Part shown: in pieces, positions 1,833 to 46,593 of the stretch
Numbering within the stretch: the first letter of the stretch is position 1
Layout of the letters: each line of letters starts with the position of its first letter
Assembly: GCA_963715945.1 (NCBI GenBank)
Contig: CAVQSL010000007.1
Coordinates: forward strand, 123,997 to 187,996
Direction of reading: 5' to 3'
DNA: 64,000 nt
From: an uncultured bacterium
Lineage (GTDB): Bacteria; Fidelibacterota; Marinisomatia; Marinisomatales; JAHJCW01
The notes under the pieces: generated by a model
Databases searched by the model: none
What the model was told of the DNA's origin: nothing
Seen by the model: only the letters and a program-made list of their open reading frames with translations
Program-made: the position numbers and the translations under genes

Positions 1833-1916
1833 GCCCGGGTGGCGGAATTGGTAGACGCGCTAGATTCAGGGTCTAGTCTCCTTTGGGAGGTGCTGGTTCA
1901 AGTCCAGTCCCGGGTA
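1833..1916 (+). tRNA. tRNA-Leu (anticodon CAG), long variable arm, no encoded CCA
   Basis: Acceptor stem GCCCGGG/CCCGGGT, D-arm GGCGGAATTGGTAGAC, anticodon stem-loop CTAGA-TTCAGGG-TCTAG and T-arm GGTTCAAGTCC, all read by eye. Confidence 0.9.
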
Positions 1917-1944
1917 CGCTTCTTATTTAATTATCTATTTAATG

Positions 1945-3360
1945 CTATATTGTTGGTTTTTTAAACTTAATAAATCCAACCGCGCGCCACACAATCCACA
2001 GTAATATCATATAACCAATTAATACTCCAAGAGTTATCCAATATCCTTTAATGGCATTTCCATACATTACAATTGGGATATTTAATGCTATCAGCATTGG
2101 TATCCCGAGGAATAGAGAAATACCGCTACCATACACTGCATCCTCTGCAACAGGAGTTTCAAACTCGGGGTCTGTTACGCGGAGCAGTACTAAAGCGGAG
2201 TTTATAGTACCCGTCATTTCTCCCCAAAGTTCAATAAATCGTTCAAAGTGATAGTCATCAAAAGCCCGTTTGGACGTCCAATAAAGCATGAATCCAGTCG
2301 CAGGACCACCTAGAAGGCTCATAAGTACAATAGCTTCCCAATTAGACATAACTATTTTAAAACTTATCGCGGCAACCGCGCCAATTACTAAGAAATCTAA
2401 AAATACTCCCATACTACGGTTCATTAACCCTTTATCAATAACATATGCGCGTCCTGACATATCCATGATTTTCCGAACTGCCAATGCGATTAGCAGACCA
2501 ATAACAAAATGAAACGACCAAATTGTTCCCACAAATCCTGCTAAAGCCGGACTATTTCCCATCATTGTTGTTAGCCATTTAACAACAAACCAAGTCAATA
2601 AATAAACTAAACCAATTAAAGATAACTGGAATGCTAATGGTTCAATAGCTTCTGTAGTCATTGTAAGTTTACCAGCAATAGGAGGTTTGCCATCTTTATA
2701 AACTCCACGCCGCATATCATTTGTGATGCTATCAAGATTTGTAATAAGTTTGCTTTTCCCAGTGCGAATACCCCATTGTATTAATGCCATACCACCGAAA
2801 AATGCGTATAAATATCCAATTGTAGCAAAAGTTAGACCAATTTGACCAGCACCAACTGCTTCATACCCAAGCTTAACTAGTTCAGTGTCCCAGCTGTTTC
2901 CCATCGTTGCAGCGAGACCGGGGCCCATACCAAAACCAAGCGGTAACAACAAACCAATACCAATAAATAGATCAGGTTTAATCGTATAAACAAGTATTAG
3001 GGCTATAATCAGACCGATTGAACCTTGTATGAGATATGATGTAAGTGCAGCGATACTTTTACTAACCGGGCCTTTGGTCCAATTGCTTTTTGACTGTCTC
3101 AAACCAAGCGCAATAAATGTAAGCGCTAATAAATGGTAAACATATAATATCAGCCTGTCAGCTTGTAGATCAATTAATCCAAATCCCTGTGTACCGATAA
3201 TTAAAGCAAGAAATCCAGCTATTAAATTATTCGGAATCAAATACTTCTGGAAGAACTTAATATACCTACGGGCCATTGTCCCGAGCATTAAAAAAGCACT
3301 TAAAAATAAAAAATCTAGTACAACAAATCTAAGATTTACATCAAGATCCCATGGATTCAT
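1945..3360 (-). CDS. Sodium/glutamate symporter family (GltS-like) polytopic membrane transporter
   Basis: 471-aa highly hydrophobic ORF. The N-terminal region (LGTMARRYIKFFQKYLIPNNLIAGFLALIIG) resembles E. coli GltS as I recall it. No search was run. Confidence 0.5.
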   Translation of the reverse strand: MNPWDLDVNLRFVVLDFLFLSAFLMLGTMARRYIKFFQKYLIPNNLIAGFLALIIGTQGFGLIDLQADRLILYVYHLLALTFIALGLRQSKSNWTKGPVSKSIAALTSYLIQGSIGLIIALILVYTIKPDLFIGIGLLLPLGFGMGPGLAATMGNSWDTELVKLGYEAVGAGQIGLTFATIGYLYAFFGGMALIQWGIRTGKSKLITNLDSITNDMRRGVYKDGKPPIAGKLTMTTEAIEPLAFQLSLIGLVYLLTWFVVKWLTTMMGNSPALAGFVGTIWSFHFVIGLLIALAVRKIMDMSGRAYVIDKGLMNRSMGVFLDFLVIGAVAAISFKIVMSNWEAIVLMSLLGGPATGFMLYWTSKRAFDDYHFERFIELWGEMTGTINSALVLLRVTDPEFETPVAEDAVYGSGISLFLGIPMLIALNIPIVMYGNAIKGYWITLGVLIGYMILLWIVWRAVGFIKFKKPTI

Positions 3361-3518
3361 AGTATTTCCTTTGGTTTAGTTAGCAAAATATAGTTTCAAA
3401 TTATTAAGAAAAAAAACTACAAATATCAATTACAAGAATTTGTTTTATTATCAAATATCTCTGTATGTTTTATCAAGTCAATCAATCATTTTTAAACTAA
3501 AGAGGGATATAAAATATT

Positions 3519-5924
3519 ATGTTAAAAAAAATCTTTATAACATTATCCATAATTATTTTAGTAATAGTTGTCTTAGTATTATTTTTTGTACGTGGAATAG
3601 CAACCAAAGGTATACCAGATTATAATGCTAAAATTCAACTCGAAAATCTAAAAGACGAGGTTATTGTCTATCGTGATGAATTTGCAGTTCCGCATATCTA
3701 TGCAAAAAATGAAGAAGACCTTTACCGAGCCACTGGATATTGTATGGCACAAGATAGATTATGGCAATTTGATTTGATTCGCAGAGCGACTACCGGTGAG
3801 TTGTCCGAGATATTTGGTGAAGATATGATAGATGCTGATCAGATGCTAAGAATGCTTCGAATACCTGATAAATCTAGATATATTCTTGAAAATGCTAATG
3901 AAGAGATATTAATCGCCCTAGAATCATTTAGCGATGGAGTTAATCAATATATTGAAACTCATCAACGAAATCTGCCACCTGAATTCACGATTTTGGGCTA
4001 TAAACCTGCCAAATGGCTACCGGAACATTCTATTAATTTAATTGGATATATGGCATGGGATTTGACAATGCCGTGGCATATTGAAACTGTTTTCCAAAGA
4101 ATTCGTGAAAAAGTTGGCGATGAGAAATTTGCAAAATTAGTACCCGATCTAGATTTGCAGAAAACTGTAATATATACTGAAATCGGTGAAAACGAGAGTA
4201 CGCTAAGTATCGATTCTCCATATTTAGCTGCAATGGATAAATTGCAAGATCTAGGAATAGAAATATTCAACGGGAGTAATAATTGGGTAGTTTCCGGTGA
4301 GAAAAGCACATCGGGTAAACCGTTATTTTCCAATGATATGCATCTTGGCCTGAGTGCACCAGGAATATGGTACACAATGCATCAAGTTGTGGAAGGCAAA
4401 TTTAACGTGACTGGAGTTGCAGTACCCGGGCAACCACTTGTAGTAGCAGGGCACAATGAACATATTGCGTGGGGTATGACAAATGTCATGGTTGATGATA
4501 TGGATTTTTATTACGAAAAGATCAATCCAGCTAATCCTGATGAGTATTGGTTCAACGGTGAATGGAAACCTTTGGAAGTGCGAAAAGAAATAATAAATAT
4601 TAAAGGTGGTGAAACTGTTGAAAGAGAAAATCGATTTACACATCGAGGACCAATAGTTACAAAAACCAAAAAAATGGATGAAGGAAATCCGATATCCATG
4701 CGATGGGTAGGCAATGAACCAAGTGATGAAATGCGTAGTTTGTATTTGATGAATCGTGCTCAAAATTGGGAAGATTATAAAAACGCCTTACAAACTTTTG
4801 TATCGGTAAGCCAGAACATTGCCTATGCTGACGTTAATGGAAATATTGGTCTTTATTGTGCCGCAGGCGTACCTTTAAGAGACGGTTGGAATGGTTTGGA
4901 GATCATGCCCGGTGAAACTGATAAATATGATTGGAAAGGATTAGTTCCATTTGAGGATTTACCGCATAGTTATAATCCAAAAAGTGGATTTGTCTCATCA
5001 GCAAATAACCGCACAGCTGGCGATGATTATCCTTATCATATTTCACATTGGTATGCACCGCAGTATCGAATTGATCGCATTCGCGAATTACTAACAGAGA
5101 AACAATTGCTTTCGATTGATGACTATAAACGGATTCAAGCTGATCAAAAATCCAAACTAGTTGAAAAAATGATAGCGAAACTGAATCTAATTATTAGTAA
5201 AAATAATAATCTTAACAATATCGAAAAACAATCGGCGGAATTCCTAGCTGAATGGGATGGTGTATTAACTAAAGAAAGTATTGCTACAACAATATTCGAT
5301 CAATTTTATTTAGAATTAATAAAAAACATATTTCTAGACGAATTAGGTGAAGAACTTTACACTGATTATACTAAAGTTGAGTACACACCTTACTTAGCAA
5401 TTGATAAAATGTGGTTAGATGGCAATTCTGAATGGTGTGATGATATAAGTACTAAAGCAATTGAAAATCTTGAAGATATGGTTCAATTAAGTTTCAAAGA
5501 TGCGGTTGCGGAACTATCTACGAGATTTGGAACAGATACTGATAAATGGCAATGGGGCAAAATACACGGTCTAGTACTTGAACACCCAATGGGTGGAGTT
5601 AAAATATTAGACAAGATATTTCATTTGAATCGTGGACCGTATCCGGTAGGTGGAAGCAGTCATACCGTATCACCATATCGATTTGAAAGAAGTAATCCAT
5701 ATAACGTGAATTATGGCTCATCACACCGTCATATTTACGATACATCAAATTGGGATAATTCATTATCGATAATTCCAACCGGTATTTCAGGAATTCCGGC
5801 AAGTAAACATTACTGTGACCAGACTCAGTCATATGTTAATAATGAGTACCGGAACGATTACATTTCACGAGATTTGGTGGAAGAAAGCGCTAAGTATAAA
5901 CAGGTATTTACAAAAAAGCAGTGA
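3519..5924 (+). CDS. Penicillin/AHL acylase family Ntn-hydrolase (secreted)
   Basis: 801-aa ORF with an N-terminal signal/anchor. The internal GSNNWVVSG matches the autoproteolytic Ser-Asn N-terminus of the beta chain in the penicillin amidase family. Confidence 0.85.
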   Translation: MLKKIFITLSIIILVIVVLVLFFVRGIATKGIPDYNAKIQLENLKDEVIVYRDEFAVPHIYAKNEEDLYRATGYCMAQDRLWQFDLIRRATTGELSEIFGEDMIDADQMLRMLRIPDKSRYILENANEEILIALESFSDGVNQYIETHQRNLPPEFTILGYKPAKWLPEHSINLIGYMAWDLTMPWHIETVFQRIREKVGDEKFAKLVPDLDLQKTVIYTEIGENESTLSIDSPYLAAMDKLQDLGIEIFNGSNNWVVSGEKSTSGKPLFSNDMHLGLSAPGIWYTMHQVVEGKFNVTGVAVPGQPLVVAGHNEHIAWGMTNVMVDDMDFYYEKINPANPDEYWFNGEWKPLEVRKEIINIKGGETVERENRFTHRGPIVTKTKKMDEGNPISMRWVGNEPSDEMRSLYLMNRAQNWEDYKNALQTFVSVSQNIAYADVNGNIGLYCAAGVPLRDGWNGLEIMPGETDKYDWKGLVPFEDLPHSYNPKSGFVSSANNRTAGDDYPYHISHWYAPQYRIDRIRELLTEKQLLSIDDYKRIQADQKSKLVEKMIAKLNLIISKNNNLNNIEKQSAEFLAEWDGVLTKESIATTIFDQFYLELIKNIFLDELGEELYTDYTKVEYTPYLAIDKMWLDGNSEWCDDISTKAIENLEDMVQLSFKDAVAELSTRFGTDTDKWQWGKIHGLVLEHPMGGVKILDKIFHLNRGPYPVGGSSHTVSPYRFERSNPYNVNYGSSHRHIYDTSNWDNSLSIIPTGISGIPASKHYCDQTQSYVNNEYRNDYISRDLVEESAKYKQVFTKKQ

Positions 5925-6027: not shown

Positions 6028-7320
6028 TTAGTACAAATATCCAAGTCCTATGTAAAGACCGCTATTACCATCTAGTTCATCTTTAGCCATTCCATAGTCA
6101 ACTGCCACAATAAAATTTTCATTCAGGGCTATTCTAAATCCGCCACCAAAGGAAAGGTGTAATCCTTGATCTTCATCAGAGCCGTACAATCTTTCATAGT
6201 CATCGTTTCCGTATTCTGATAATATTTTACCTGCATCAACAAAACCGTTCAGAGCAAGATATAAATTCTGTCCTAACAATTTTGTCCGTAGGAATTTCCA
6301 CCGAGCCTCTAAGTTACCAAAACCAATACTGTTACCTACTAACCTATTTTTAAGTATTCCACGTAAAGATTTAGAACCACCAAGTCCCTCAGTTGCTCTA
6401 TATGAACTTTGATAATGTGGTAACATAAAGAATGGCATTTCACCGCTTAAAACTGTTTGGTATCCTAAACGAACTGCAACTGATAGATCATTTGGAATAA
6501 TAGTAAAATATTGACGATGAGTTCCGGTAAATAACGTATATGAAAAATCGTTTCCTAATCCACTTGGAACTGCAGTAATTAATGCTTCAGTCCACATACC
6601 AGACATTGGATTTGGTTCATTATCACGTGAATCATAAACCAATCCTAATTTAACGTAATTAGTATTGCCACCAAGCGCTTCATCAGCATTAATAGCTGCA
6701 TGATTTACATAATCATCGTATAAAATAGTAATTTCAGGTAATCTATCTGCAGCATCTTTGCCGTCATTTAATTTGGCTGTATCAACCGTGGCAACTTCTG
6801 TGTTGTAATAAGCTAACCCAAGTATCCCGCGCAAATTTGGTACAAACAAATTCTTCTGAAAATCTGTAGTTAATTTTGTGATATTGCGCTCATGGCGATA
6901 GTATATGCGTGATTTATAAGCATCATCATCTTCGAGTTCATGAGCAGGATTATTATCACCATTAAAACCATAGAATGGTAACGCTTGTTCAGTTAAATAT
7001 GCAGCTTCTGCCGTGATTCGAATGTCATAGGGTAGCAGATATTTTGAATCAAAGAATATTATGTTTTCTCCACTTCCTTTTGTAGTGCGAGTCCAAGTTA
7101 GTCTTGTAGTGTATAAATAATCAGGATATTGACTTCCGTCACCATAATTATACACATCAAGAATTGCTCCATATAGAAAACCAGTATCAGAGTTATAAGC
7201 AATTGCCGGAACACCACCAAAACTCCAACCGGTAGGGGCATCCTGCCCAACAGTAACTCCTACTGATAAGCCAATAATAAATATAAAAATTAACACTTTT
7301 TTGCATTTTGTCATTTTCAT
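6028..7320 (-). CDS. Omp85-family outer-membrane beta-barrel protein (no POTRA seen)
   Basis: 430-aa ORF with a signal peptide and alternating beta-strand pattern. It has GGSKSLRG and FVDAG motifs typical of surface-antigen (D15) barrels and an aromatic C-terminus (GLGYLY). Confidence 0.55.
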   Translation of the reverse strand: MKMTKCKKVLIFIFIIGLSVGVTVGQDAPTGWSFGGVPAIAYNSDTGFLYGAILDVYNYGDGSQYPDYLYTTRLTWTRTTKGSGENIIFFDSKYLLPYDIRITAEAAYLTEQALPFYGFNGDNNPAHELEDDDAYKSRIYYRHERNITKLTTDFQKNLFVPNLRGILGLAYYNTEVATVDTAKLNDGKDAADRLPEITILYDDYVNHAAINADEALGGNTNYVKLGLVYDSRDNEPNPMSGMWTEALITAVPSGLGNDFSYTLFTGTHRQYFTIIPNDLSVAVRLGYQTVLSGEMPFFMLPHYQSSYRATEGLGGSKSLRGILKNRLVGNSIGFGNLEARWKFLRTKLLGQNLYLALNGFVDAGKILSEYGNDDYERLYGSDEDQGLHLSFGGGFRIALNENFIVAVDYGMAKDELDGNSGLYIGLGYLY

Positions 7321-33023: not shown

Positions 33024-33157
33024 AAATCCTCCGGTTTGGTTTAATTGTATATTCCAAAATATGAAGGAAATTTAATACTGATTTGAGGATATTCAAGATT
33101 TAATAAACATCTGCTAATTAAAAATAATTGGTAGATAAAAATGAGGATTTGAAAACG

Positions 33158-33230
<73 letters not shown>

Positions 33231-35662: not shown

Positions 35663-37497
35663 ATGGCTGTAATGACATCAATGCGGACAAAAATGCACAT
35701 CGTTTTGTGGGCTGTATTAATACTATTTTTATTAAGTATGACGGTCGGTGGGCTCGTAGGCGGTGCTGATATTTTAGATCAATTAATGGGCAGAACCAAT
35801 CCTGGTGAGGCAATTGGCGTAATAGATGGAGAGAAAATTCCTCCGGACTTTTTTAATCAGTTAGTAAATCAACAATTAGAGCAATATCGTGTAAGTGGAC
35901 AAACCGTAAGCGATCAGATGCTAGAAGATATTCGCAATCAAGTGTGGAATAATATAATTCGAGAAAACCTTATTGCCTCCGCTATTCTTGATATGGGGAT
36001 TACCGCAACTGATGAGGAAGTCATATATCATTTGCAAAATAATCCTCCACAGTTTTTGCGCACTATGCCGGCGTTCCAAACTAATGGGCAATTTGATACA
36101 CAAAAATATCTTACTGCTGTGAATAACCCTGAAGGTAACGAATGGGCACCGGTTGAGCAGATTATGAAAAGCAACGTTATACCAAACTACAAATTACAGA
36201 AAATGTTATTTTCATCAATAACCGTATCCGATTCTGAAATTCGCAAAGAACATATTCGAAGAAATGTTGATTTCACTATTGACGCTGTTCATGTTGTTGA
36301 GAACAATGTCAATCCAGCCGACATAGACGTATCGGAAAACGAAATCAAGCGTGCTTATAACAACCGTAAAGATGAATTTAATCGTCCGGAATCAAGAAAA
36401 TTACGGTTTGTGTATTGGCCAAAGGGATCATCTGCTAGTGATACTATTTCAACCTATAATGATGCCCGCGATATAATTGCTCAACTCAATTCTGGAGCAG
36501 ACTTCGCTGATCTTGCAAATTTATATTCTGAAGACCCCGGCAATAAAACTCCTGAAGGTTCATTTCGGGGCGGTGACTTAGGTTGGTTCGAGCGCGGTCA
36601 AATGGTCAAACCTTTTTCTGATGCTGCATTTTCAGCACGAAAAGGCGCTGTTGTAGGACCTATTTTATCACAATTTGGCTATCATGTTATTAAAGTACTT
36701 GATAAAAAAACAGTCAATGGTAAGACTCAAGTACATGGTGCACATATCTTATTGAATATTACTGTGGGCGCAGATACACGCGATGCGATACGGCGCGATG
36801 CAACCCTATTCAGTTATGATGCGCAAGATTATGGATTCGATGCAGCTTTAGATACACATTCTGTTGTTGCAACAGAAGTCTCTTTGAATGAAGATGGAGT
36901 GTTTATTAATCCAATCGGACAATTGCGTTACGCTGCACGATTCGCCTTCAATAGTCCTATTGGAGAAATTTCATCACCCATGGAGAATGATGATTATTAC
37001 GCTGTTTTCAAATTGGAATCTATTACGCCAAAAGGTCCGGCACCATTAAAGGATGTTGAAAATGCTATAAAAGAAGATATTCGTAAAGATAAAATTGCAG
37101 TCACAACCAAGAAACTTGCTTCTGAATTGAGAGCAAGCATAAATAAAGGTACAACTTTTGATGAAATCGTTGCCCAGGATAATGGTTACGAATTAGTAAT
37201 AGGTGAAACAAATAATCTTAATCGCGGATTTAGCTCTATAGGACGCAGTAACTTTGTTACAGGAGCCTTTTAAATGCAAAGCCCAACAATGTATTGGGAC
37301 CATTAAAAACTGCTCGTGGTTATGCTATACTATTTGTTAAAAGCATATCAGAAATTGATACTAATGAATTTGAAATTCGTAAGGACATCTTAAGAGAAAA
37401 TCTTCTAGCAAATAAACAAAGTCAGGTGTTTGAAAAGTGGCTAAAACAGTTGGAAGATAAAGCTGATATTAAAGATTTTCGTAAATATCATTATTAA
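35663..37497 (+). CDS. Periplasmic chaperone / parvulin-type peptidyl-prolyl isomerase (PpiD/SurA-like), frameshift in a T-run near 37270
   Basis: N-terminal anchor and a parvulin domain (GGDLGWFERGQMVKPFSDAAF...GYHVIKVLD). ORFs 35663..37273 and 37294..37497 join if one T is added. Confidence 0.75.
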
Positions 37498-37598: not shown

Positions 37599-38937
<1,339 letters not shown>

Positions 38938-39167: not shown

Positions 39168-40454
39168 ATGAACAACAAGACTTATAATGCATTCGAAACT
39201 GCTCAAAAACAGTTTGACCGTGCTGCCGATTTATTAGAATTAGATCAAGCTACTCGCGATCTATTACGTAATCCTTTGAGAGAATTTCATTTTAGCATTC
39301 CAATCCGTATGGACGATGGCACTATGAAAGTATTTAAGGGCTTTAGAGTACAACATAATGATGCAAGAGGTCCTGCAAAAGGAGGAATACGATTTCATCC
39401 TCAAGAAACAGTTGATACTGTCCGAGCACTATCAATGTGGATGACATGGAAAACAGCTGTTGCTGATATTCCGTTAGGTGGTGGTAAAGGCGGCGTTATT
39501 TGTGATCCACACAATTTAAGTTTAACCGAACAAGAACGCATTTGTCGTGGTTGGGCACGCCAGATTGCAAAAAATGTTGGTTCTCATTCTGATGTTCCTG
39601 CTCCAGATGTAATGACCAATGCACAACATATGTTATGGATGTTAGATGAATTTGAAACCATAAAAGGTGCAAAAGATCCTGGCTTTATTACTGGAAAACC
39701 GGTTGGAATGGGTGGATCTTTAGGCAGAAAAGAAGCTACTGGATATGGAGTGATGATCACTGTTCGAGAAGCCTTAAAAGTGTTAAATATTAATCCTGAA
39801 AAAACCACTGCAAGTTTTCAAGGCTTTGGCAATGTTTCACAATATGCAATTGAACTATATCAACAAATGGGTGGTACAGTAAAATGTGTTTCATGTTGGG
39901 ATCAAAAAGACAATACTAGCTATTCCTATAAAAAAGAAAGTGGGATTGATTTGAAAGAACTGCTTTCAATTACCGATTCGTTTGGTGGTATTAACAAAAC
40001 AAAAGCTAAAGAATTGGGATTTGAAATGCTACCTGGAGAAGCTTGGTTAGAACAAGATGTTGATATACTAGTCCCTTCAGCGTTAGAGAATCAAATAACT
40101 GGCGAAAATGTTGAAAAGATTAGCGATCAAGTTAAGATTATTGCCGAAGGAGCCAACGGACCAACTACTCCCGAAGCAGATAAAGTGCTTGATGAGAAAG
40201 GTATTTTTATTATACCGGATTTTCTGGCAAATGCCGGCGGAGTAACTTGTAGTTATTTTGAACAAGTTCAATGTAATATGAATTATTTCTGGGCAAAAGA
40301 TGAAGTCCTTGGAAAATTAGATGTTAAAATGACTGCGGCATTTATTGCTGTGAATGATTTCTCCAAATCTAACAATTTGAACATGCGTGATGCCGCTTAT
40401 GTCATATCAGTTGATAGAGTAGCACAGGCATGTAAAGATAGAGGTTGGGTATAG
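39168..40454 (+). CDS. Glu/Leu/Phe/Val dehydrogenase family, roughly 420-aa glutamate dehydrogenase class
   Basis: 428-aa ORF with KGGIRFHP, IPLGGGKGGV and a Rossmann motif (QGFGNVSQYA). Confidence 0.85.
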   Translation: MNNKTYNAFETAQKQFDRAADLLELDQATRDLLRNPLREFHFSIPIRMDDGTMKVFKGFRVQHNDARGPAKGGIRFHPQETVDTVRALSMWMTWKTAVADIPLGGGKGGVICDPHNLSLTEQERICRGWARQIAKNVGSHSDVPAPDVMTNAQHMLWMLDEFETIKGAKDPGFITGKPVGMGGSLGRKEATGYGVMITVREALKVLNINPEKTTASFQGFGNVSQYAIELYQQMGGTVKCVSCWDQKDNTSYSYKKESGIDLKELLSITDSFGGINKTKAKELGFEMLPGEAWLEQDVDILVPSALENQITGENVEKISDQVKIIAEGANGPTTPEADKVLDEKGIFIIPDFLANAGGVTCSYFEQVQCNMNYFWAKDEVLGKLDVKMTAAFIAVNDFSKSNNLNMRDAAYVISVDRVAQACKDRGWV

Positions 40455-40528: not shown

Positions 40529-42287
40529 ATGTCTCAAGAACATAGTCAATTTGACCGGAAATTCTTTAGTTCTACAAATCGAGTATCATATATCGGTACT
40601 GGGTCAATTGGCGGGAAAGCCCACGGTCTCGAGCTGATTGATAAAATATTAAATTCTAAAGAATTTGATCGAGATAGTTTTCCTCAAATTGATGTTAATA
40701 TTCCTGTTCTAACAGTCCTTCGCACTGATATATTTGATAAATTTATGCAATTAAATAATCTTTATGATATTGCATATTCAGATGTACCAGATGATAGAAT
40801 TAGTCATGCTTTTCAAAACGCTGCTCTCCCCTTTGGAATATTGGGTGATCTAAGAGCCCTAATTAGTGAAGTCCATTCTCCTCTAGCAGTTAGGTCTTCA
40901 AGTATGTTGGAAGATGCAATGTTTGAACCGTTTGCTGGTATATATGGCACAAAAATGACGCCAAATAACCAACCTGATGCCGATACACGATTTAGTAAAT
41001 TGGTTGAAGCCATAAAGTTCGTCTACTCTTCAACATATTTCAAACGTGCAAAAGATTACATTAAGGCTACAAAGCACTCAATTGAAGATGAAAAAATGGC
41101 TGTCATAATACAAGAAGTCGTAGGTGTTAGACATACAGACAGATTTTATCCGGAATTATCTGGTGTGGCCCGCTCCTATAATTTTTATCCGATGGGTAGA
41201 GCAAAACCAGAAGAGGGTGTGGTTAATCTTGCATTGGGATTAGGGAAAACCATTGTCGATGGAGGAATTTCGTGGGCATATTCTCCTGAATACCCAAAAG
41301 TTGATCCACCATTTGGATCGGTTGGAGATTTGCTCAAAAATACCCAATTAGACTTTTGGGCTATAAATATGGGCAAACCACCATCATATAATCCTCTTGC
41401 TGAAACAGAATACATGATGAAAGGGGACTTAATGACAGCCGAATCGGATGGATCGCTACGATATTTAGCCTCAACTGTAGATTCGAATTCAGGCAGATTG
41501 ACTATTGGTATCGGAGCTCAAGGACCACGGGCGCTGACATTTGCTCCATTACTTGTATTTGATAATATTCCGTTAAATAACTTAATTAAAAATCTATTAG
41601 AGGTATGTGAAAAAGCATTAGATGCCCCCGTGGAAATAGAATTTGCCATGACCTTTTCTAAAAATAGAGATGGAACCGGTAAACACCGTTTTGGTTTTCT
41701 TCAAAGTAGACCGATGGTGATCTCAAATGAAAAAATCGATGTCAGATCGGAGGAGTTTGAACTCCGAGAACGTCTTAGTAGCTTCGGAAAATGTCTTAGG
41801 AAACGGAGTAATTGATTCCATTAAAGATATTGTTTTCGTAATACCGGAAAAGTTCAACGCCAAAGACACACAAAAAATAGCAAGCGAAATCGAGATTGTT
41901 AATAAAAAATTGGTAACAGACAATCGTTCTTACTTGTTAATTGGATTTGGTAGATGGGGCAGTTCAGATCCATGGTTAGGGATTCCAGTCAACTGGGGAC
42001 AGGTATCAGGAGCGAGCGCTATTGTAGAAGCGATGCTGGAAAATATGAATGTAGATCTAAGTCAGGGTTCTCATTTCTTTCATAATTTAACAAGTTTCAA
42101 TGTTTGCTATTTCTCAATCCCATATTATAGTAAATTAAAAATAGACTGGGATTGGCTAAGTAAGCAATCAGTTGAGCAAGAAACTACTTTTGTAAAGCAT
42201 GTTAAGCTAAAATCTCCATTATTTATTAAAGCAGATGGTCGAAACAGTAAAGGTTTGATTTATAAAACAAATAATCAAAATGAATAA
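40529..42287 (+). CDS. PEP/pyruvate-binding (PPDK-N ATP-grasp) domain protein of unknown function, frameshift near 41745
   Basis: GGKAHGL, LAVRSSSMLEDAMFEPFAGIYGT and AVIIQEVVG are ATP-grasp hallmarks of the PEP synthase/PPDK N-domain. The C-terminal module GFGRWGSSDPWLG...DLSQGSHFF lies in ORF 41727..42287. Confidence 0.7.
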
Positions 42288-45200
42288 AAATAAGTCATTA
42301 GATAATATCATTGTAGATCTTAAGGAACGGGCTAAGGAATTAAGCTGTTTATATGAGATACAAGAATTACTTAGCAACATTAATGCTGAGGCTGACGAAA
42401 TATGCCGTGAAATGGTAAAGGTAATTCCAGCAGGATGGCAATTCCCTGAAATTTGTGTAGTTAAAATCAAATATCGAGGTTCAGAATATTTATCTGAAAA
42501 TTTCAAAGAAACAAATTGGTATCAAAAAAGTGATATAGTCTTGCAAGATGAGATTGTTGGTAGTATAAATGTTTATTATACAGAAGAAAGACCAAAGTTG
42601 GATCAAGGTCCATTTCTAAAAGAAGAAAGGAAGCTAATTAATACTATTGCGGGACAATTTGGATTATTTCTATTGCATAAACGTCTCAAGAATGTTTTTG
42701 CTAAAAAAAAGCAAGCAGTTAGTCCCCGAAAGAGCGAATGGGGCATAATACTAGATCTACTAAAGAGGACAGATCCCAAACTACTCATTAGAATTTCCAG
42801 GAAAATGCTAAATTTTTTATGTTGGAGTGGAATTAAAAAAGCAGAAGAATTACTCCAACGCGTTAATCCTAATTATTCTAAAAATGGAGAAATATTTAAA
42901 GAAGCAAATCAGCCCTATCAAAAAAGTCCCACTGAAGATATATTAAGTCTAAGTTATGAGATATTCACTATTGCAGCTGATAATTTAAATCAAAAGGAAG
43001 TACTAAATAATATACAGAAGTGGATTAAAGAAGATCGATCGGGATTTTTAATAAATACACTTGAAGATAGCGGTTCTTCTCTTACAGATATTAGTAACGC
43101 CATTGAAAGATTTAATCATTTAGTACCACAGGGATTAGAGCTATCTTCGCCAAGAGAAATCAGCTTTATGGTATCCCTAATCAGACGAGTATTAAGTGAC
43201 CAACCGGACTATATATCGATAGCTAAAAAATTTATAGATATTAAAGATTTCAATAAACTATTGAACGCCATTATTTTTCCAGTTGGCAGTCATGGCAGAT
43301 TGGGAGGAAAAAGTTCAGGGTTATTCCTTGCAGAACAAATTATAAAGAGATCATCAAAAGACAATGATTTATTAAAAAGTATAAAGACCCCAAGAGCTTG
43401 GTACATTACCTCAGATAGTCTGCTCAATTTTATGAGATACAATAATCTTGAAGATGTTATCGAACAGAAATATAAAGATATTGGTCAAGTCAGACAGGAA
43501 TATCCATACGTTGTACATGTATTTAAGAATTCTCCTTTTCCTCCAGAGCTAATTAAAGATCTATCTTCAGTAATTGACAATTTTGGTGAAAAACCGCTAA
43601 TCGTAAGAAGTTCAAGTATATTAGAAGATCGACTGGGAGCAGCATTTGCTGGTAAGTATAAAAGTTTATTTATTGCCAATCAAGGTACTAAAGAAGAACG
43701 TCTTATCGATTTAATGGACGCTATTGCTGAAGTATATGCATCAATTTTTGGACCTGACCCAATTGAATATCGAAAAGAACAGGGTTTGCTAGATTACCAT
43801 GAGGAAATGGGTATTTTGATTCAAGAAGTAGTAGGACAAAAAGTAGGCAATTATTTCTTTCCTTCTTTTGCCGGTGTTGCATTAAGTAATAATGAATTTC
43901 GTTGGTCAAACAGAATAAAAATGGAGGATGGACTTGTTCGTATCGTACCCGGCTTAGGCACTAGAGCAGTTGATCGAGTTAGTGATGATTATCCGATTTT
44001 GATGGCTCCCGGCGAACCCAACCTCCGCGTTAACGTCACATTGGATGAAATGATACGCTATTCACCTAAATATATTGACGTTATAAACCTTGAAACTTCA
44101 TCGTTTGAAACATTGGTAATTGATGATTTAATTAAAAACCACGGTAAAGATTATCCTTTTATTAATAATGTTATATCAATACTTAAAGAAAACCATATAC
44201 AACATCCAAGAGCAATTGGCACAGATTATGCAAAAGACAACTTTATTGTCACTTTTGAAGGATTAATAACCAGAACACCATTTGTAAAACAAATTCACGC
44301 ATTGATCATTAATTTACGTAATAGTTTTGAACATCCGATTGATATTGAATTTGCTCATGATGGAAAGGATTTCTATTTACTTCAGTGCCGGACTCAGAGC
44401 CAGGGTTTAGCAAGTAAGCCGGCAGTAATACCTGATGATATTCCAACCGAAAAAATTATCTTTTCCGCTAATAAGTATGTTTCCAATGGAATTGTATCAA
44501 ATATTTCGCATATTGTTTATGTAAGTCCACAAAAGTATAGTGAAATAACAGACTATCAACACTTGGTTTCGGTAGGGAGAGCAATTGGGAAGCTAAATAA
44601 AATCCTTCCTAAAAGACAATTCATTCTTATGGGACCAGGTCGCTGGGGTAGCCGTGGCGATATAAAACTTGGTGTAAACGTAACCTATTCTGACATCAAT
44701 AATACTTCGATCCTGATCGAGATAGCCCGAAAACAGAAAGATTACGTACCTGATTTATCATTCGGTACACATTTTTTTCAAGATTTAGTCGAAGCAAATA
44801 TCCGCTATCTGCCATTATATCCCGATGATAAGGGTAATGTATTTAACGAAGAATTTCTTGAACACTCAAAAAATGTATTCATAGACATGTTACCTGACTT
44901 TGAACATATTAAAGATGTTGTAAGAGTCATTGATATCCCTGCCACTGCCGATGGCCAAATCATGCAAATATTAATGAATGCCGAGAATAATAAAGCGGTT
45001 AGTGTGCTAACAAAAGATGTACAAGATTTTGCGATTGAATCTGATGAAAAAGATACAATTATAAGTTACGAAAAATCAGAAGTACACTGGAGATGGAGAC
45101 AGAGGAATATTGAAGGTCTTGCTCGTCAATTGGATCCAAAAAGATTTGGCGTAAAAGGCTTTTATCTACTTGGAAGCACAAAAAATGCTACTGCAGGTCC

Positions 45201-45465
45201 CGCAAGCGATATTGATATAATAATTCATTTTATAGGCTCAAATGAACAGCGTAAAGATTTAGAAACATGGCTTGATGGCTGGAGCCAAAGTTTAAGCCAA
45301 ATGAATTTTTTGCGTACCGGCTATGAAACTGATGGTCTTCTGGATGTTCATATCCTTACAGACGAGGATATTAAAAATAAAACTAGTTATGCTGTAAAGA
45401 TTGGGGCAATTACCGATGCAGCTAGACCGCTTGAGTTTGGAACTAATATAAAAAGTAATAAATAA
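42280..45465 (+). CDS. Large multidomain protein: sensor-like N-module + PPDK-N ATP-grasp + GRWGS module + C-terminal nucleotidyltransferase
   Basis: 1061-aa intact ORF overlapping the upstream stop by 8 nt. Contains GGKSSGL, IVRSSSILEDRLGAAFAGKYKS, GILIQEVVG, GPGRWGSRGDIKLG...DLSFGTHFF, and a C-terminal GS...DIDI motif (LLGSTKNATAGPASDIDIIIHF). Confidence 0.7.
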   Translation: MNKNKSLDNIIVDLKERAKELSCLYEIQELLSNINAEADEICREMVKVIPAGWQFPEICVVKIKYRGSEYLSENFKETNWYQKSDIVLQDEIVGSINVYYTEERPKLDQGPFLKEERKLINTIAGQFGLFLLHKRLKNVFAKKKQAVSPRKSEWGIILDLLKRTDPKLLIRISRKMLNFLCWSGIKKAEELLQRVNPNYSKNGEIFKEANQPYQKSPTEDILSLSYEIFTIAADNLNQKEVLNNIQKWIKEDRSGFLINTLEDSGSSLTDISNAIERFNHLVPQGLELSSPREISFMVSLIRRVLSDQPDYISIAKKFIDIKDFNKLLNAIIFPVGSHGRLGGKSSGLFLAEQIIKRSSKDNDLLKSIKTPRAWYITSDSLLNFMRYNNLEDVIEQKYKDIGQVRQEYPYVVHVFKNSPFPPELIKDLSSVIDNFGEKPLIVRSSSILEDRLGAAFAGKYKSLFIANQGTKEERLIDLMDAIAEVYASIFGPDPIEYRKEQGLLDYHEEMGILIQEVVGQKVGNYFFPSFAGVALSNNEFRWSNRIKMEDGLVRIVPGLGTRAVDRVSDDYPILMAPGEPNLRVNVTLDEMIRYSPKYIDVINLETSSFETLVIDDLIKNHGKDYPFINNVISILKENHIQHPRAIGTDYAKDNFIVTFEGLITRTPFVKQIHALIINLRNSFEHPIDIEFAHDGKDFYLLQCRTQSQGLASKPAVIPDDIPTEKIIFSANKYVSNGIVSNISHIVYVSPQKYSEITDYQHLVSVGRAIGKLNKILPKRQFILMGPGRWGSRGDIKLGVNVTYSDINNTSILIEIARKQKDYVPDLSFGTHFFQDLVEANIRYLPLYPDDKGNVFNEEFLEHSKNVFIDMLPDFEHIKDVVRVIDIPATADGQIMQILMNAENNKAVSVLTKDVQDFAIESDEKDTIISYEKSEVHWRWRQRNIEGLARQLDPKRFGVKGFYLLGSTKNATAGPASDIDIIIHFIGSNEQRKDLETWLDGWSQSLSQMNFLRTGYETDGLLDVHILTDEDIKNKTSYAVKIGAITDAARPLEFGTNIKSNK

Positions 45466-46332
45466 CTATATTAGTTCCCGCATAGTTTTTTCTGGATGAT
45501 ATTTATCAAATCTAATAAGTGCTAATTCCGGACCGTCGTGAGCAGCTGTATATAAATACGTCTCTTCAACTTTATCTTTCCAAGTTCCTTTTAATCTTGC
45601 TGATTCATGTACATGACCATGCAAAGTTATCGTCGGTTGATTTTTCTTAATAAATCGCTTTACGGCAATGCTTCCAACATGTATATCTAACGGTACATGG
45701 TCAACCATTTTACCATCAAGTGCTGCTCGATCTAAATTAGTTTTGTAGGGTGGCGTATGAAATAGAAATATTGATTTATGTAATTCATTATTTCCAACAA
45801 GTGTTTTTAAATCTTTTTCTATCGTGGAGTATCTTAATTCATGTTTTGATACCTTAACTGAATGCCACCCTTCTTCAGGCGAAACACAGCCTGGGTCGGT
45901 ATAACGTGACACATCATATTTTTCCCAGTCTTTTAATTGAAAGGGTGTTGGTGGTACATAGTTATATCCGTATATTTCAAAATCATCAAATTCTAATTTT
46001 CTTATTATGTATATATTCCCATATACCAACTTGCTTATCATCAATAAAGTCTTTTTCATTAATTTTACTATCATCATTACCGAGGATTAGGAAAACATGA
46101 GGATACTTCTCTCCCAACTTTATTCTTTAAATTAAGAAATTCAAATATCAGGAAGTCTCTGAATGAAATCATCGACTATTGTTTCGTTACTTGTTAGGGC
46201 AAATAAACCGGATGGAAGCAAATCACCACCTAGAAATACAGCTTCGGGTTCTTCAACTAATATTTGGAAGAATAACTTGTTATATCGTTCTATTTTTCCG
46301 TGTAAATCGGAAACAAAAAAACAAATACTCAT
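45466..46332 (-). CDS. Metallophosphoesterase (calcineurin-like), at least one frame break near 46080..46140
   Basis: N-terminal fragment FFVSDLHGK...FLGGDLL and C-terminal ORF with FLFHTPP, LHGHVHES. The fragments lie in different frames. Confidence 0.65.
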
Positions 46333-46516: not shown

Positions 46517-46593
46517 GGCGGAGTAGCTCAGTTGGTTAGAGCAGCGGAATCATAATCCGCGTGTCGGGGGTTCAAATCCCTCCTCCGCTACCA
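46517..46593 (+). tRNA. tRNA-Met (anticodon CAU), CCA encoded
   Basis: GGCGGAGTAGCTCAGTTGGTTAGAGCAGCGGAATCATAATCCGCGTGTCGGGGGTTCAAATCCCTCCTCCGCTACCA folds as a cloverleaf. An elongator versus tRNA-Ile2 (lysidine) identity cannot be settled by eye. Confidence 0.85.

Follow-up and report, generated by a model that had tools for sequence, protein, structure and literature searches.

The window analysed here is a stretch of 64,000 nucleotides from an uncultured bacterium of the order Marinisomatales (contig CAVQSL010000007.1, positions 123,997 to 187,996), and its subject is a cassette of four genes. A glutamate dehydrogenase (GDH) of 428 amino acids (GDH428; 39168..40454, forward strand) comes first, and is followed on the same strand by two open reading frames (ORFs) with ATP-grasp domains, ORF1 (40529..42287) and ORF2 (42280..45465), and then, on the reverse strand, by a calcineurin-like metallophosphoesterase (45466..46332). 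This cassette is widespread, strongly conserved, uncharacterised and centred on GDH; its core combines a known type of ATP-grasp with an undescribed, histidine-bearing domain. The first-pass annotation had described the two ATP-grasp proteins as a two-protein system of unknown substrate. That description gives way to a four-gene cassette, of which the most constant partner is a dedicated GDH that had gone unmentioned, and the candidates for the substrate are reduced to GDH or its reaction.

GDH428 was identified by Pfam and by synteny, and looks from its sequence to be a canonical, complete hexameric enzyme. It matched ELFV_dehydrog_N and ELFV_dehydrog (2e-53 and 2e-70), contained the PLGGGKGG motif, and aligned in PDB with the hexameric GDH 1bvu (3e-125) and with structures from Thermococcus, Pyrococcus and Thermotoga (1e-117 to 1e-125). 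Relative to a Pyrococcus GDH sequence, the cassette GDHs may carry some 8 additional residues (CWDQKDNTSYSY) around residues 240-255, including an invariant tryptophan, which is no more than a hint of a surface feature peculiar to the subfamily. The gap between GDH428 and ORF1 is 74 nt, without a terminator-like site.

Homologous loci were sought in one genome per GTDB species; at least 576 were found and the best 80 were analysed. Among these best loci were members of the Calditrichota, Ignavibacteria/Melioribacteraceae, Bacteroidales and other Bacteroidota, Delongbacteria, Anaerolineae, Acidobacteriota (including Aminicenantes), Zixibacteria, Planctomycetota, Gemmatimonadota, Synergistia, Krumholzibacteriia and others, making more than 10 phyla overall; 'Marinimicrobia' were also among the carriers of the GDH subfamily encoded with the cassette. 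Clustering of ORFs returned a recurrent order of GDH (428 aa), an ORF1-like gene (approximately 580 aa), an ORF2-like gene (approximately 1060 aa) and a reverse-strand metallophosphoesterase (approximately 287 aa). One locus (L166), for which independent gene calls and precomputed Pfam results were available, gave ELFV_dehydrog, PPDK_N, PPDK_N plus NTP_transf_2, and reverse-strand Metallophos. One cluster ('c5'), which had appeared to be an upstream gene replacing GDH, turned out, in high-GC loci, to consist of shadow ORFs antisense to GDH, and synteny was therefore recounted by tblastn. Of the 64 genome loci that could be assessed, 55 then had a 428-type GDH directly upstream in the same orientation, and 60 had one somewhere within the flank. 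These cassette-linked GDHs formed a tight subfamily, with 67-94% identity between phyla and a length of 428 aa in almost every case.

The association was also evident from the opposite direction. Metagenome contigs were scanned with an alignment of the 428-aa GDH, and the best 80 loci (72-94% identical to the window GDH) were retained; 59 of them had at least 600 nt downstream and were counted. In 55 of these 59 loci, selected by GDH only, the next gene was ORF1 (46) or directly ORF2 (9). Hence, the linkage is two-way, and the GDH428 subfamily is essentially dedicated to the cassette. ORF1 adjoined ORF2 in 59 of 75 genome loci, with a median spacing of -4 nt, and several clusters and loci contained a fusion of the two, of approximately 1630-1650 aa. 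ORF1 was absent from about a fifth of loci, where GDH still immediately preceded ORF2. Homologues of ORF2 (about 1060 aa, 53-86% identical) and of ORF1 (about 580 aa, 61-99% identical) were abundant in metagenomes and metagenome-assembled genomes, and thousands of homologues share the 580- and 1060-aa lengths. One exceptional arrangement was observed in a 4.8-Mb genome (L165), where a Gp49-like toxin and a helix-turn-helix antitoxin were inserted between the ORF1 and ORF2 homologues (6214..6844); there was no GDH upstream, its place being taken by a C25 peptidase with a Por secretion tail.

ORF1 encodes the small ATP-grasp subunit (about 585 aa if intact) and ORF2 the large subunit, which is intact at 1061 aa; all of their features given below lie on the forward strand. 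Sequence comparison identifies the two as colinear paralogues, far beyond chance. A public protein of 585 aa (P0121), which is 99% identical to the rebuilt ORF1, aligned with ORF2 over 534 colinear residues (28% identity, E = 1e-43), an alignment that spanned both the ATP-grasp and a C-terminal module. The motifs invariant in the family alignments were GGK, VRSSS.LED..FAG.Y, IQEVVG, G.GRWGS..D..LG and S.G[ST]HFF. The paralogy proposed in the first-pass annotation was confirmed by these comparisons, and the ordered motifs it had listed for both ORFs were all present, corresponding to the invariant columns.

Pfam returned PF01326, the PPDK_N-type ATP-grasp, as the sole domain in ORF1 (aa 26-408, 40604..41752, 1.3e-33); in ORF2, PF01326 (aa 340-717, 43297..44430, 1.8e-55) was accompanied by PF01909 (NTP_transf_2, aa 955-997), which was exactly the content that had been predicted. 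Both ATP-grasps share with E. coli PpsA the motifs GGK, VRSS..ED..FAG, Q-E-V-V, SGV..S, G-L-G, [DE]-I-E-F and L-Q-x-R, and both look catalytically competent as predicted from these motifs. The remaining domains of a dikinase were not found. The swivel domain PF00391 (PEP_mobile) was absent at E ≤ 10 from ORF1, ORF2, their sub-sequences and 17 module sequences, and the phosphoenolpyruvate (PEP)/pyruvate barrel PF02896 (PEP-utilizers_C) was absent from ORF1, ORF2 and their sub-sequences at the same threshold. E. coli PpsA, used as a positive control, yielded all three domains with the same tool, PEP_mobile at 1e-29. NCBIfam models for PpsA, rifampicin phosphotransferase (RPH) and PigC/RedH produced partial ATP-grasp matches only, scoring 17-58 bits against cut-offs of 500-1700. 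The best scores among PpsA equivalogs were 57.7 bits against 598 (NF005057) and 56 against 739.75 (TIGR01418); the RPH models NF041857 and NF000283 gave 16.8-30.6 bits against 999 and 22 against 1700, while the PigC/RedH models NF052631 and NF052632 gave 44 bits against 1300 and 25-39 against 1350, being matched within the first half of the ATP-grasp. The earlier view that the pair is not a mis-split PpsA or PPDK is upheld by these scores and by the missing domains. Its companion statement, that the swivel histidine is lacking, should be limited to the canonical swivel domain, as the module at the swivel position carries an invariant G-[ST]-H that could play the same role. Homologues bear public names such as 'pyruvate, water dikinase', 'pyruvate, phosphate dikinase', 'PEP/pyruvate-binding domain-containing protein', 'nucleotidyltransferase domain-containing protein' and 'hypothetical'. 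Judged by predicted domain content, the dikinase names are unsupported.

This module measures approximately 170-200 aa in each protein. In ORF1 it occupies 41766..42284, matches nothing in Pfam, NCBIfam or PDB and aligns with its counterpart in ORF2, which occupies aa ~718-920 (44431..45039). G.GRWGS, D, E and S.G[ST]HF are invariant between the two. In alignments that span ORF1-type, ORF2-type and two further kinds of paralogue described below (receiver-type, or REC-type, and 860-aa), the invariant columns were G26, N62, G76-R77-(W)-G79, G87, E103, G118 and H120-F121, which take the motif form G-x-G-R-W-G-[ST], L-G, E and S-x-G-[ST]-H-F-F; His831 of ORF2 (codon 44770..44772) is invariant in the family alignment. 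An AlphaFold2 model of ORF2 residues 712-935 was an alpha/beta domain with a pLDDT (predicted local distance difference test) of 88 and a pTM (predicted template modelling score) of 0.85, in which a strand leads into the GPGRWGS loop and the histidine of SFGTHFF sits at the N-terminus of a helix. When the modelled module was compared with PDB by Foldseek, nothing was better than E = 0.15 and no PPDK, PEP synthase or Enzyme I was among the top matches. Sequence and profile searches of PDB sequences returned no match, nor did Pfam for the 17 module sequences. Certain features do recall a swivel domain, namely a G-x-G hairpin after the ATP-grasp and the order strand, loop, G-[ST]-H, helix, strand. 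A divergent swivel domain was nonetheless rejected, as hhalign gave a probability of 0.1% against the swivels of E. coli PpsA, PtsI, PtsP and PtsA, with a four-sequence profile that limits sensitivity. The description of the module as uncharacterised has withstood these comparisons, including the Foldseek search that had been proposed for it.

When 1.84 billion cluster representatives were searched with a profile, the module was present in 2193 (1567 at E ≤ 1e-10). The lengths of module-bearing proteins clustered at about 580, 990-1000, 1060 and 1500-1650 aa, besides fragments, and in every long protein checked the module was preceded by PPDK_N. Since it directly follows PPDK_N in all of these, the module stands at the position of the swivel phosphohistidine domain in PpsA and PPDK, with an invariant histidine, and is no recognisable member of that domain family.

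ORF2 has three further regions. Its N-terminus (aa ~7-145, 42298..42714) was modelled by AlphaFold2 as part of residues 1-335, with a pLDDT of 81-89 across residues 11-100, and Foldseek matched it to the GAF domains of Nlh1 (4g3k), NifA (8jrc), CodY, PDE2A and PtsP (3ci6), with a probability of 1.0 and a best E of only 4e-3. NCBI labels the N-terminal fragment of one ORF2 homologue 'GAF domain-containing protein'. The Pfam GAF models do not match the ORF2 N-terminus, and for this reason the putative sensor is called GAF-like, a name that follows the model and is kept cautious. C23, Y25, W53, Q54, C59 and W80 are invariant within it. In a set of 32 homologues the two cysteines, C23 (codon 42346..42348) and C59 (42454..42456), were invariant along with W53, Q54, W80 and Y100; the cysteines could act as a redox switch or bind a ligand. 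An all-helical linker follows (aa ~150-335, 42727..43284), which was defined by modelled secondary structure of moderate confidence and matched no family. The C-terminal ~125 residues (aa 935-1061, 45082..45462) form a minimal nucleotidyltransferase (NTase) of the pol-beta type, for which PF01909 scored 27 bits in ORF2 and 23.4-27.1 bits overall, against a cut-off of 21; the Pfam family Polbeta matched as well. The motif G965-S-x10-D977-x-D979 plus D1022 was recognised here, and G965, S966, D977, D979 and D1022 were invariant in 12 homologues. The first-pass annotation had anticipated PF01909 at the far C-terminus and had overlooked the GAF-like domain.

The same PPDK_N and module core occurs beside GDH genes in other architectures. 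A paralogue of 860 aa consists of a helical linker, PPDK_N and the module, retains the last part of the ORF2 linker (LIRRxLSDQ..I.IAK), and has neither the GAF-like nor the NTase domain; it follows a gdhA-type GDH of 451-460 aa in two loci (L014 and L078). In REC-type paralogues, of approximately 990-1080 aa, PPDK_N and the module are joined to a receiver domain and a DUF5752-like stretch; genes of this type lie after or beside a gdhA-type GDH in four loci (L052, L054, L027 and L085) and adjoin the cassette in another four (L009, L053, L015 and L069). A gdhA-type GDH was present within the flanks of 12 of the 80 genome loci, often directly beside a REC-type or 860-aa paralogue, and these GDHs were only 30-33% identical to GDH428. 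Because three architectures of one core adjoin two GDH subfamilies, the evidence points to GDH itself, and not the history of one operon, as the partner of the PPDK_N and module core. The placement of a GAF-like or receiver input ahead of the same core fits the layout of a signalling output enzyme. In L085, the closest syntenic relative of the window, a receiver/PPDK_N/module paralogue of 997 aa (2290..5283, forward strand) was observed between ppiD and gdhA and is absent from the window; ORF1 is 38-41% identical to its C-terminal half.

The metallophosphoesterase was identified by Pfam and by synteny. It would be 287 aa if intact, and is split in the window into 45466..46077 and 46141..46332. 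An intact homologue scored 41.6 bits for PF00149 against a cut-off of 21.5, with SDLHG, GGDL, GNDD and LHGHIHE visible, while the window copy scored 20.2 bits, in its N-terminal piece only. It was convergent with, and downstream of, ORF2 in 39 of 67 loci (approximately 58%). The first-pass annotation had asked whether the two ATP-grasp genes and the phosphoesterase always occur together; the two genes are indeed conserved neighbours, and sometimes fused, while constant co-occurrence with the phosphoesterase was not borne out. Between ORF2 and the phosphoesterase the median gap was 3 nt, with many overlaps of 4-9 nt (loci L001-L080), and in the window the two stop codons abut (45463..45468, 0 nt). 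This leaves no space for terminators, so that the convergent transcripts must overlap, and the two genes could be expressed in antisense or mutually exclusive fashion.

The window copy of ORF1 is itself interrupted. The ORF1 stop overlaps the ORF2 start by 8 nt (caaaATGAATAAaaat), and ORF1 is read as 40529..41815 (428 aa) and, in another frame, 41727..42287 (186 aa); the deposited contig (220,764 bp) has the same split (P0394, 428 aa; P0396, 176 aa). Judged against P0121, which is uninterrupted (...DVRSEEFNSENVLVASE...) and reads RSEEFNSENVL in a single frame across the site, the break is a single extra G at about position 41759 (tttGaactcc). The first-pass coordinates and 8-nt overlap were accurate, and its position for the break, near 41745, was about 14 nt off. 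Four genes are split within 11 kb: a ppiD-like gene (35663..37497), a gdhA-type GDH (37599..38937), ORF1 (40529..42287) and the metallophosphoesterase (45466..46332). All four are intact in L085 (ppiD, gdhA, ORF1 and phosphoesterase, at 611, 445, 588 and 287 aa). Programmed frameshifting in ORF1 was rejected, there being no slippery or homopolymer site, with close relatives in frame and three neighbours also broken. That the site is not slippery, and that three neighbouring genes are split here yet intact in L085, suggests an assembly indel or very recent decay instead. The second GDH (37599..38937, reverse strand; about 445 aa if intact) was recognised from the ORF list and comparison with other loci; it is divergent from GDH428 and a peripheral, variable neighbour of the cassette. 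A tRNA-Met (46517..46593, forward strand) just past the metallophosphoesterase start bounds the cassette, and other tRNAs were located at 1833..1917 (Leu, CAG) and 33157..33230 (Ala, GGC). An Rfam scan of the window found no family at gathering score apart from tRNAs.

Several properties of the protein families concerned bear on what the cassette might do. In PPDK_N enzymes (PpsA, PPDK, RPH, GWD, PigC) the beta-phosphoryl of ATP reaches an oxygen acceptor by way of a histidine carrier. Enzyme I, which belongs to that superfamily, has a protein as its phosphoryl acceptor, and in its PtsP form it is gated by a GAF domain. Minimal NTases AMPylate proteins or small molecules, and calcineurin-like phosphoesterases include the PPP protein phosphatases as well as phosphodiesterases. 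ORF1 and ORF2 probably control or assist the cassette GDH in an undescribed way. The favoured reading, held at somewhat less than even odds, is a writer/eraser system, in which ligand-gated phosphorylation and/or nucleotidylation of GDH through the histidine of G-[ST]-H-F-F would be reversed by the phosphoesterase. ORF1 and ORF2 would form a hetero-oligomer, fused into one polypeptide in certain lineages, in which the GAF-like domain of ORF2 would sense a metabolite or redox cue and so gate phosphorylation by the ATP-grasps. Each PPDK_N domain would bind ATP and hand a phosphoryl group to a histidine carrier, as in PEP synthase and PPDK, the carrier being the invariant histidine of G-[ST]-H-F-F in the alpha/beta module at the swivel position, and from there the phosphoryl group would be delivered to the co-encoded GDH. 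The NTase of ORF2 might add a nucleotidyl mark (AMP or UMP) to GDH, or to the ORF1/ORF2 enzyme, and the metallophosphoesterase would take the marks off.

A number of observations weigh against this proposal. The putative carrier role of the module histidine is deduced from position and invariance, and Foldseek, PDB profile searches, Pfam and hhalign detected no homology between the module and known phosphohistidine domains. Modification of GDH is a prediction drawn from sequence, and full-text literature searches returned nothing on the PPDK_N and module family or on the GDH cassette. Fusion of GDH with PPDK_N was not seen among the long module-bearing proteins checked. Neither the phosphoesterase, missing from approximately 40% of loci, nor ORF1, missing from approximately 20%, is obligatory. 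An identity of 53-65% across phyla, for a protein of 1060 aa, is unusually high for a regulator. The window copy, in which both ORF1 and the phosphoesterase are frame-broken, may be non-functional. Finally, the adjacency of the genes fits a metabolic partnership equally well.

Such a partnership is the main rival, possible though rather unlikely. ORF1/ORF2 would be a dikinase-type enzyme that phosphorylates or channels one of the small molecules in the GDH reaction, and GDH would provide the missing substrate domain in trans. The molecule could be the enol or carbinolamine of 2-oxoglutarate, or glutamate, and ATP hydrolysis would be coupled to amination or deamination, or would yield an activated derivative. 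Characterised PPDK_N enzymes do phosphorylate a hydroxyl or enol oxygen through a histidine carrier, the best partial NCBIfam matches of ORF1 include PigC/RedH, which are ATP-driven condensation enzymes, and the very high conservation resembles that of a core enzyme; moreover, both proteins are without a substrate-binding domain while a complete GDH adjoins them. Yet the GAF-like, receiver, NTase and phosphoesterase components are typical of regulation and not of a pathway, a phosphoesterase in the same cassette would make phosphorylation of a small molecule futile, and GDH428 looks ordinary and complete. A specific form of split dikinase, with GDH as the third domain, is considered improbable: the pair would dock on the GDH hexamer and use ATP to phosphorylate the carbonyl or carbinolamine oxygen of 2-oxoglutarate, in the manner of PigC. 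Were it true, reductive amination would be ATP-driven and of high affinity and, after plain GDH and glutamine synthetase (GS) with glutamate synthase (GS-GOGAT), would count as a third way to assimilate ammonium; the GAF sensor would gate it, and the NTase and phosphoesterase would reset it.

A nucleotide signal is judged to be about as improbable as that split enzyme. Here, the NTase and ATP-grasp would make a second messenger or alarmone and the phosphoesterase would degrade it, GDH being an allosteric target or merely co-regulated, with the GAF-like domain sensing nitrogen status. The pol-beta fold does make (p)ppGpp and cyclic oligonucleotides, metallophosphoesterases include ApaH and the cyclic-nucleotide phosphodiesterases, a sensor joined to an enzyme is a signalling architecture, and the genes for writer and eraser are convergent and abutting. 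Against this, the 860-aa and REC-type paralogues keep their association with GDH without an NTase, which implies that the core activity is not that of the NTase. This domain is minimal (~125 aa) and of the MNT (minimal nucleotidyltransferase) type that modifies proteins or antibiotics, and some 40% of loci have no phosphoesterase. It is highly improbable that the cassette is a mobile defence element, or one resembling a toxin-antitoxin system, with the minimal NTase at its centre. MNT domains occur in HEPN-MNT systems, and PADLOC weakly matched the NTase motif to PDC-S09 and the phosphoesterase to PDC-S10; these matches cover 35-57 residues only (E from 6e-6 to 9e-5), with no full-length match, there is no HEPN or other toxin partner, and, unlike defence islands, the cassette is very highly conserved and keeps one gene order with a housekeeping GDH across more than 10 phyla. 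Lastly, an ordinary PEP synthase or PPDK, mis-split or mis-annotated, would account for the genuine PPDK_N domain and for the names in public records. This was refuted by the domain tests and retains almost no probability: PEP_mobile and PEP-utilizers_C, both found in the E. coli PpsA control, are missing, NCBIfam PpsA scores were 26-58 bits against cut-offs of 598-740, homologues exist by the thousand at 580 and 1060 aa, and the module is non-homologous to the swivel.

One lead in the literature was followed. The activity of GDH in Bacteroides thetaiotaomicron reportedly depends on one or more trans-acting genes downstream of gdhA, a result attributed to Baggio and Morrison (1996). We take gdhA of this species to be BT1970. 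If that is so, gdhA is flanked by genes for malic enzyme and catalase, with no PPDK_N gene, and the lead offers no support for the cassette. BT1969 is malic enzyme (PMC8865466) and BT1971 is catalase (PMC12596196), while the title of the 1996 paper appears in the reference list of PMC4539542.

A GDH subfamily is thus almost always encoded with some 1,650 residues of conserved, sensor-equipped, ATP-using enzyme, and often with a phosphoesterase. GDH stands at the junction of carbon and nitrogen metabolism, and to our knowledge its control in bacteria is generally held to be a matter of transcription, allostery or proteolysis and not of a dedicated modifying enzyme. There is a real chance that the cassette embodies a new regulatory or catalytic principle for GDH. 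If GDH is modified, another central enzyme would have a control layer like those of GlnE and AceK, and this in the lineages dominant in anoxic sediments; if its catalysis is assisted, a new ATP-coupled route of assimilation would be added. On either reading, a PPDK-type ATP-grasp is here followed by a new domain in place of the phosphohistidine swivel, and thousands of database entries named 'pyruvate, water dikinase' or 'pyruvate, phosphate dikinase' would be corrected.

Among known systems, PpsA and PPDK resemble the cassette proteins in the motifs of the PPDK_N nucleotide site (GGK, VRSS..ED..FAG, Q-x-V, [DE]IE[FW] and Q-x-R) and in having a domain directly after the ATP-grasp. They differ in what that domain is, since theirs is the PF00391 swivel (GGxTSHAA), with the PF02896 barrel, in place of the alpha/beta module with G.GRWGS and S.G[ST]HFF; and, unlike PpsA and PPDK, ORF1 and ORF2 are paralogues that come as a pair, carry GAF-like and NTase domains in addition, and are linked to GDH instead of gluconeogenesis genes. 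RPH and PigC/RedH are likewise PPDK_N enzymes in which the PEP barrel is replaced by another substrate domain, showing that the ATP-grasp and histidine machinery can be redirected. They keep the canonical swivel histidine domain, however, and ORF1 and ORF2 score only 17-44 bits for their models against 999-1350. PtsP (Enzyme I-Ntr) places an N-terminal GAF domain, confirmed for E. coli PtsP with the same tool, before a histidine phosphotransfer enzyme of the PEP-utilising family, has a protein substrate and takes part in nitrogen-related regulation, but it uses PEP through a barrel and swivel and has no ATP-grasp, whereas in ORF2 an ATP-grasp is present, the barrel is missing and the histidine module is non-homologous.

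Other likenesses are of function or concept. GlnE and GlnD are large multidomain proteins with pol-beta NTases that reversibly modify an ammonium-assimilation enzyme or its regulator, and the NTase of ORF2 is encoded beside a GDH; the NTase motif is nevertheless the only relation in sequence, GlnE and GlnD have no ATP-grasp, the same protein removes the mark, and their targets are GS and PII, not GDH. AceK offers a parallel in concept, being the reversible phosphorylating enzyme of a branch-point dehydrogenase with which it is encoded, but it is a single bifunctional protein of unrelated fold. The core of the cassette lies outside the PpsA/PPDK, RPH and PigC families, while plausibly working as they do at the step between ATP and histidine.

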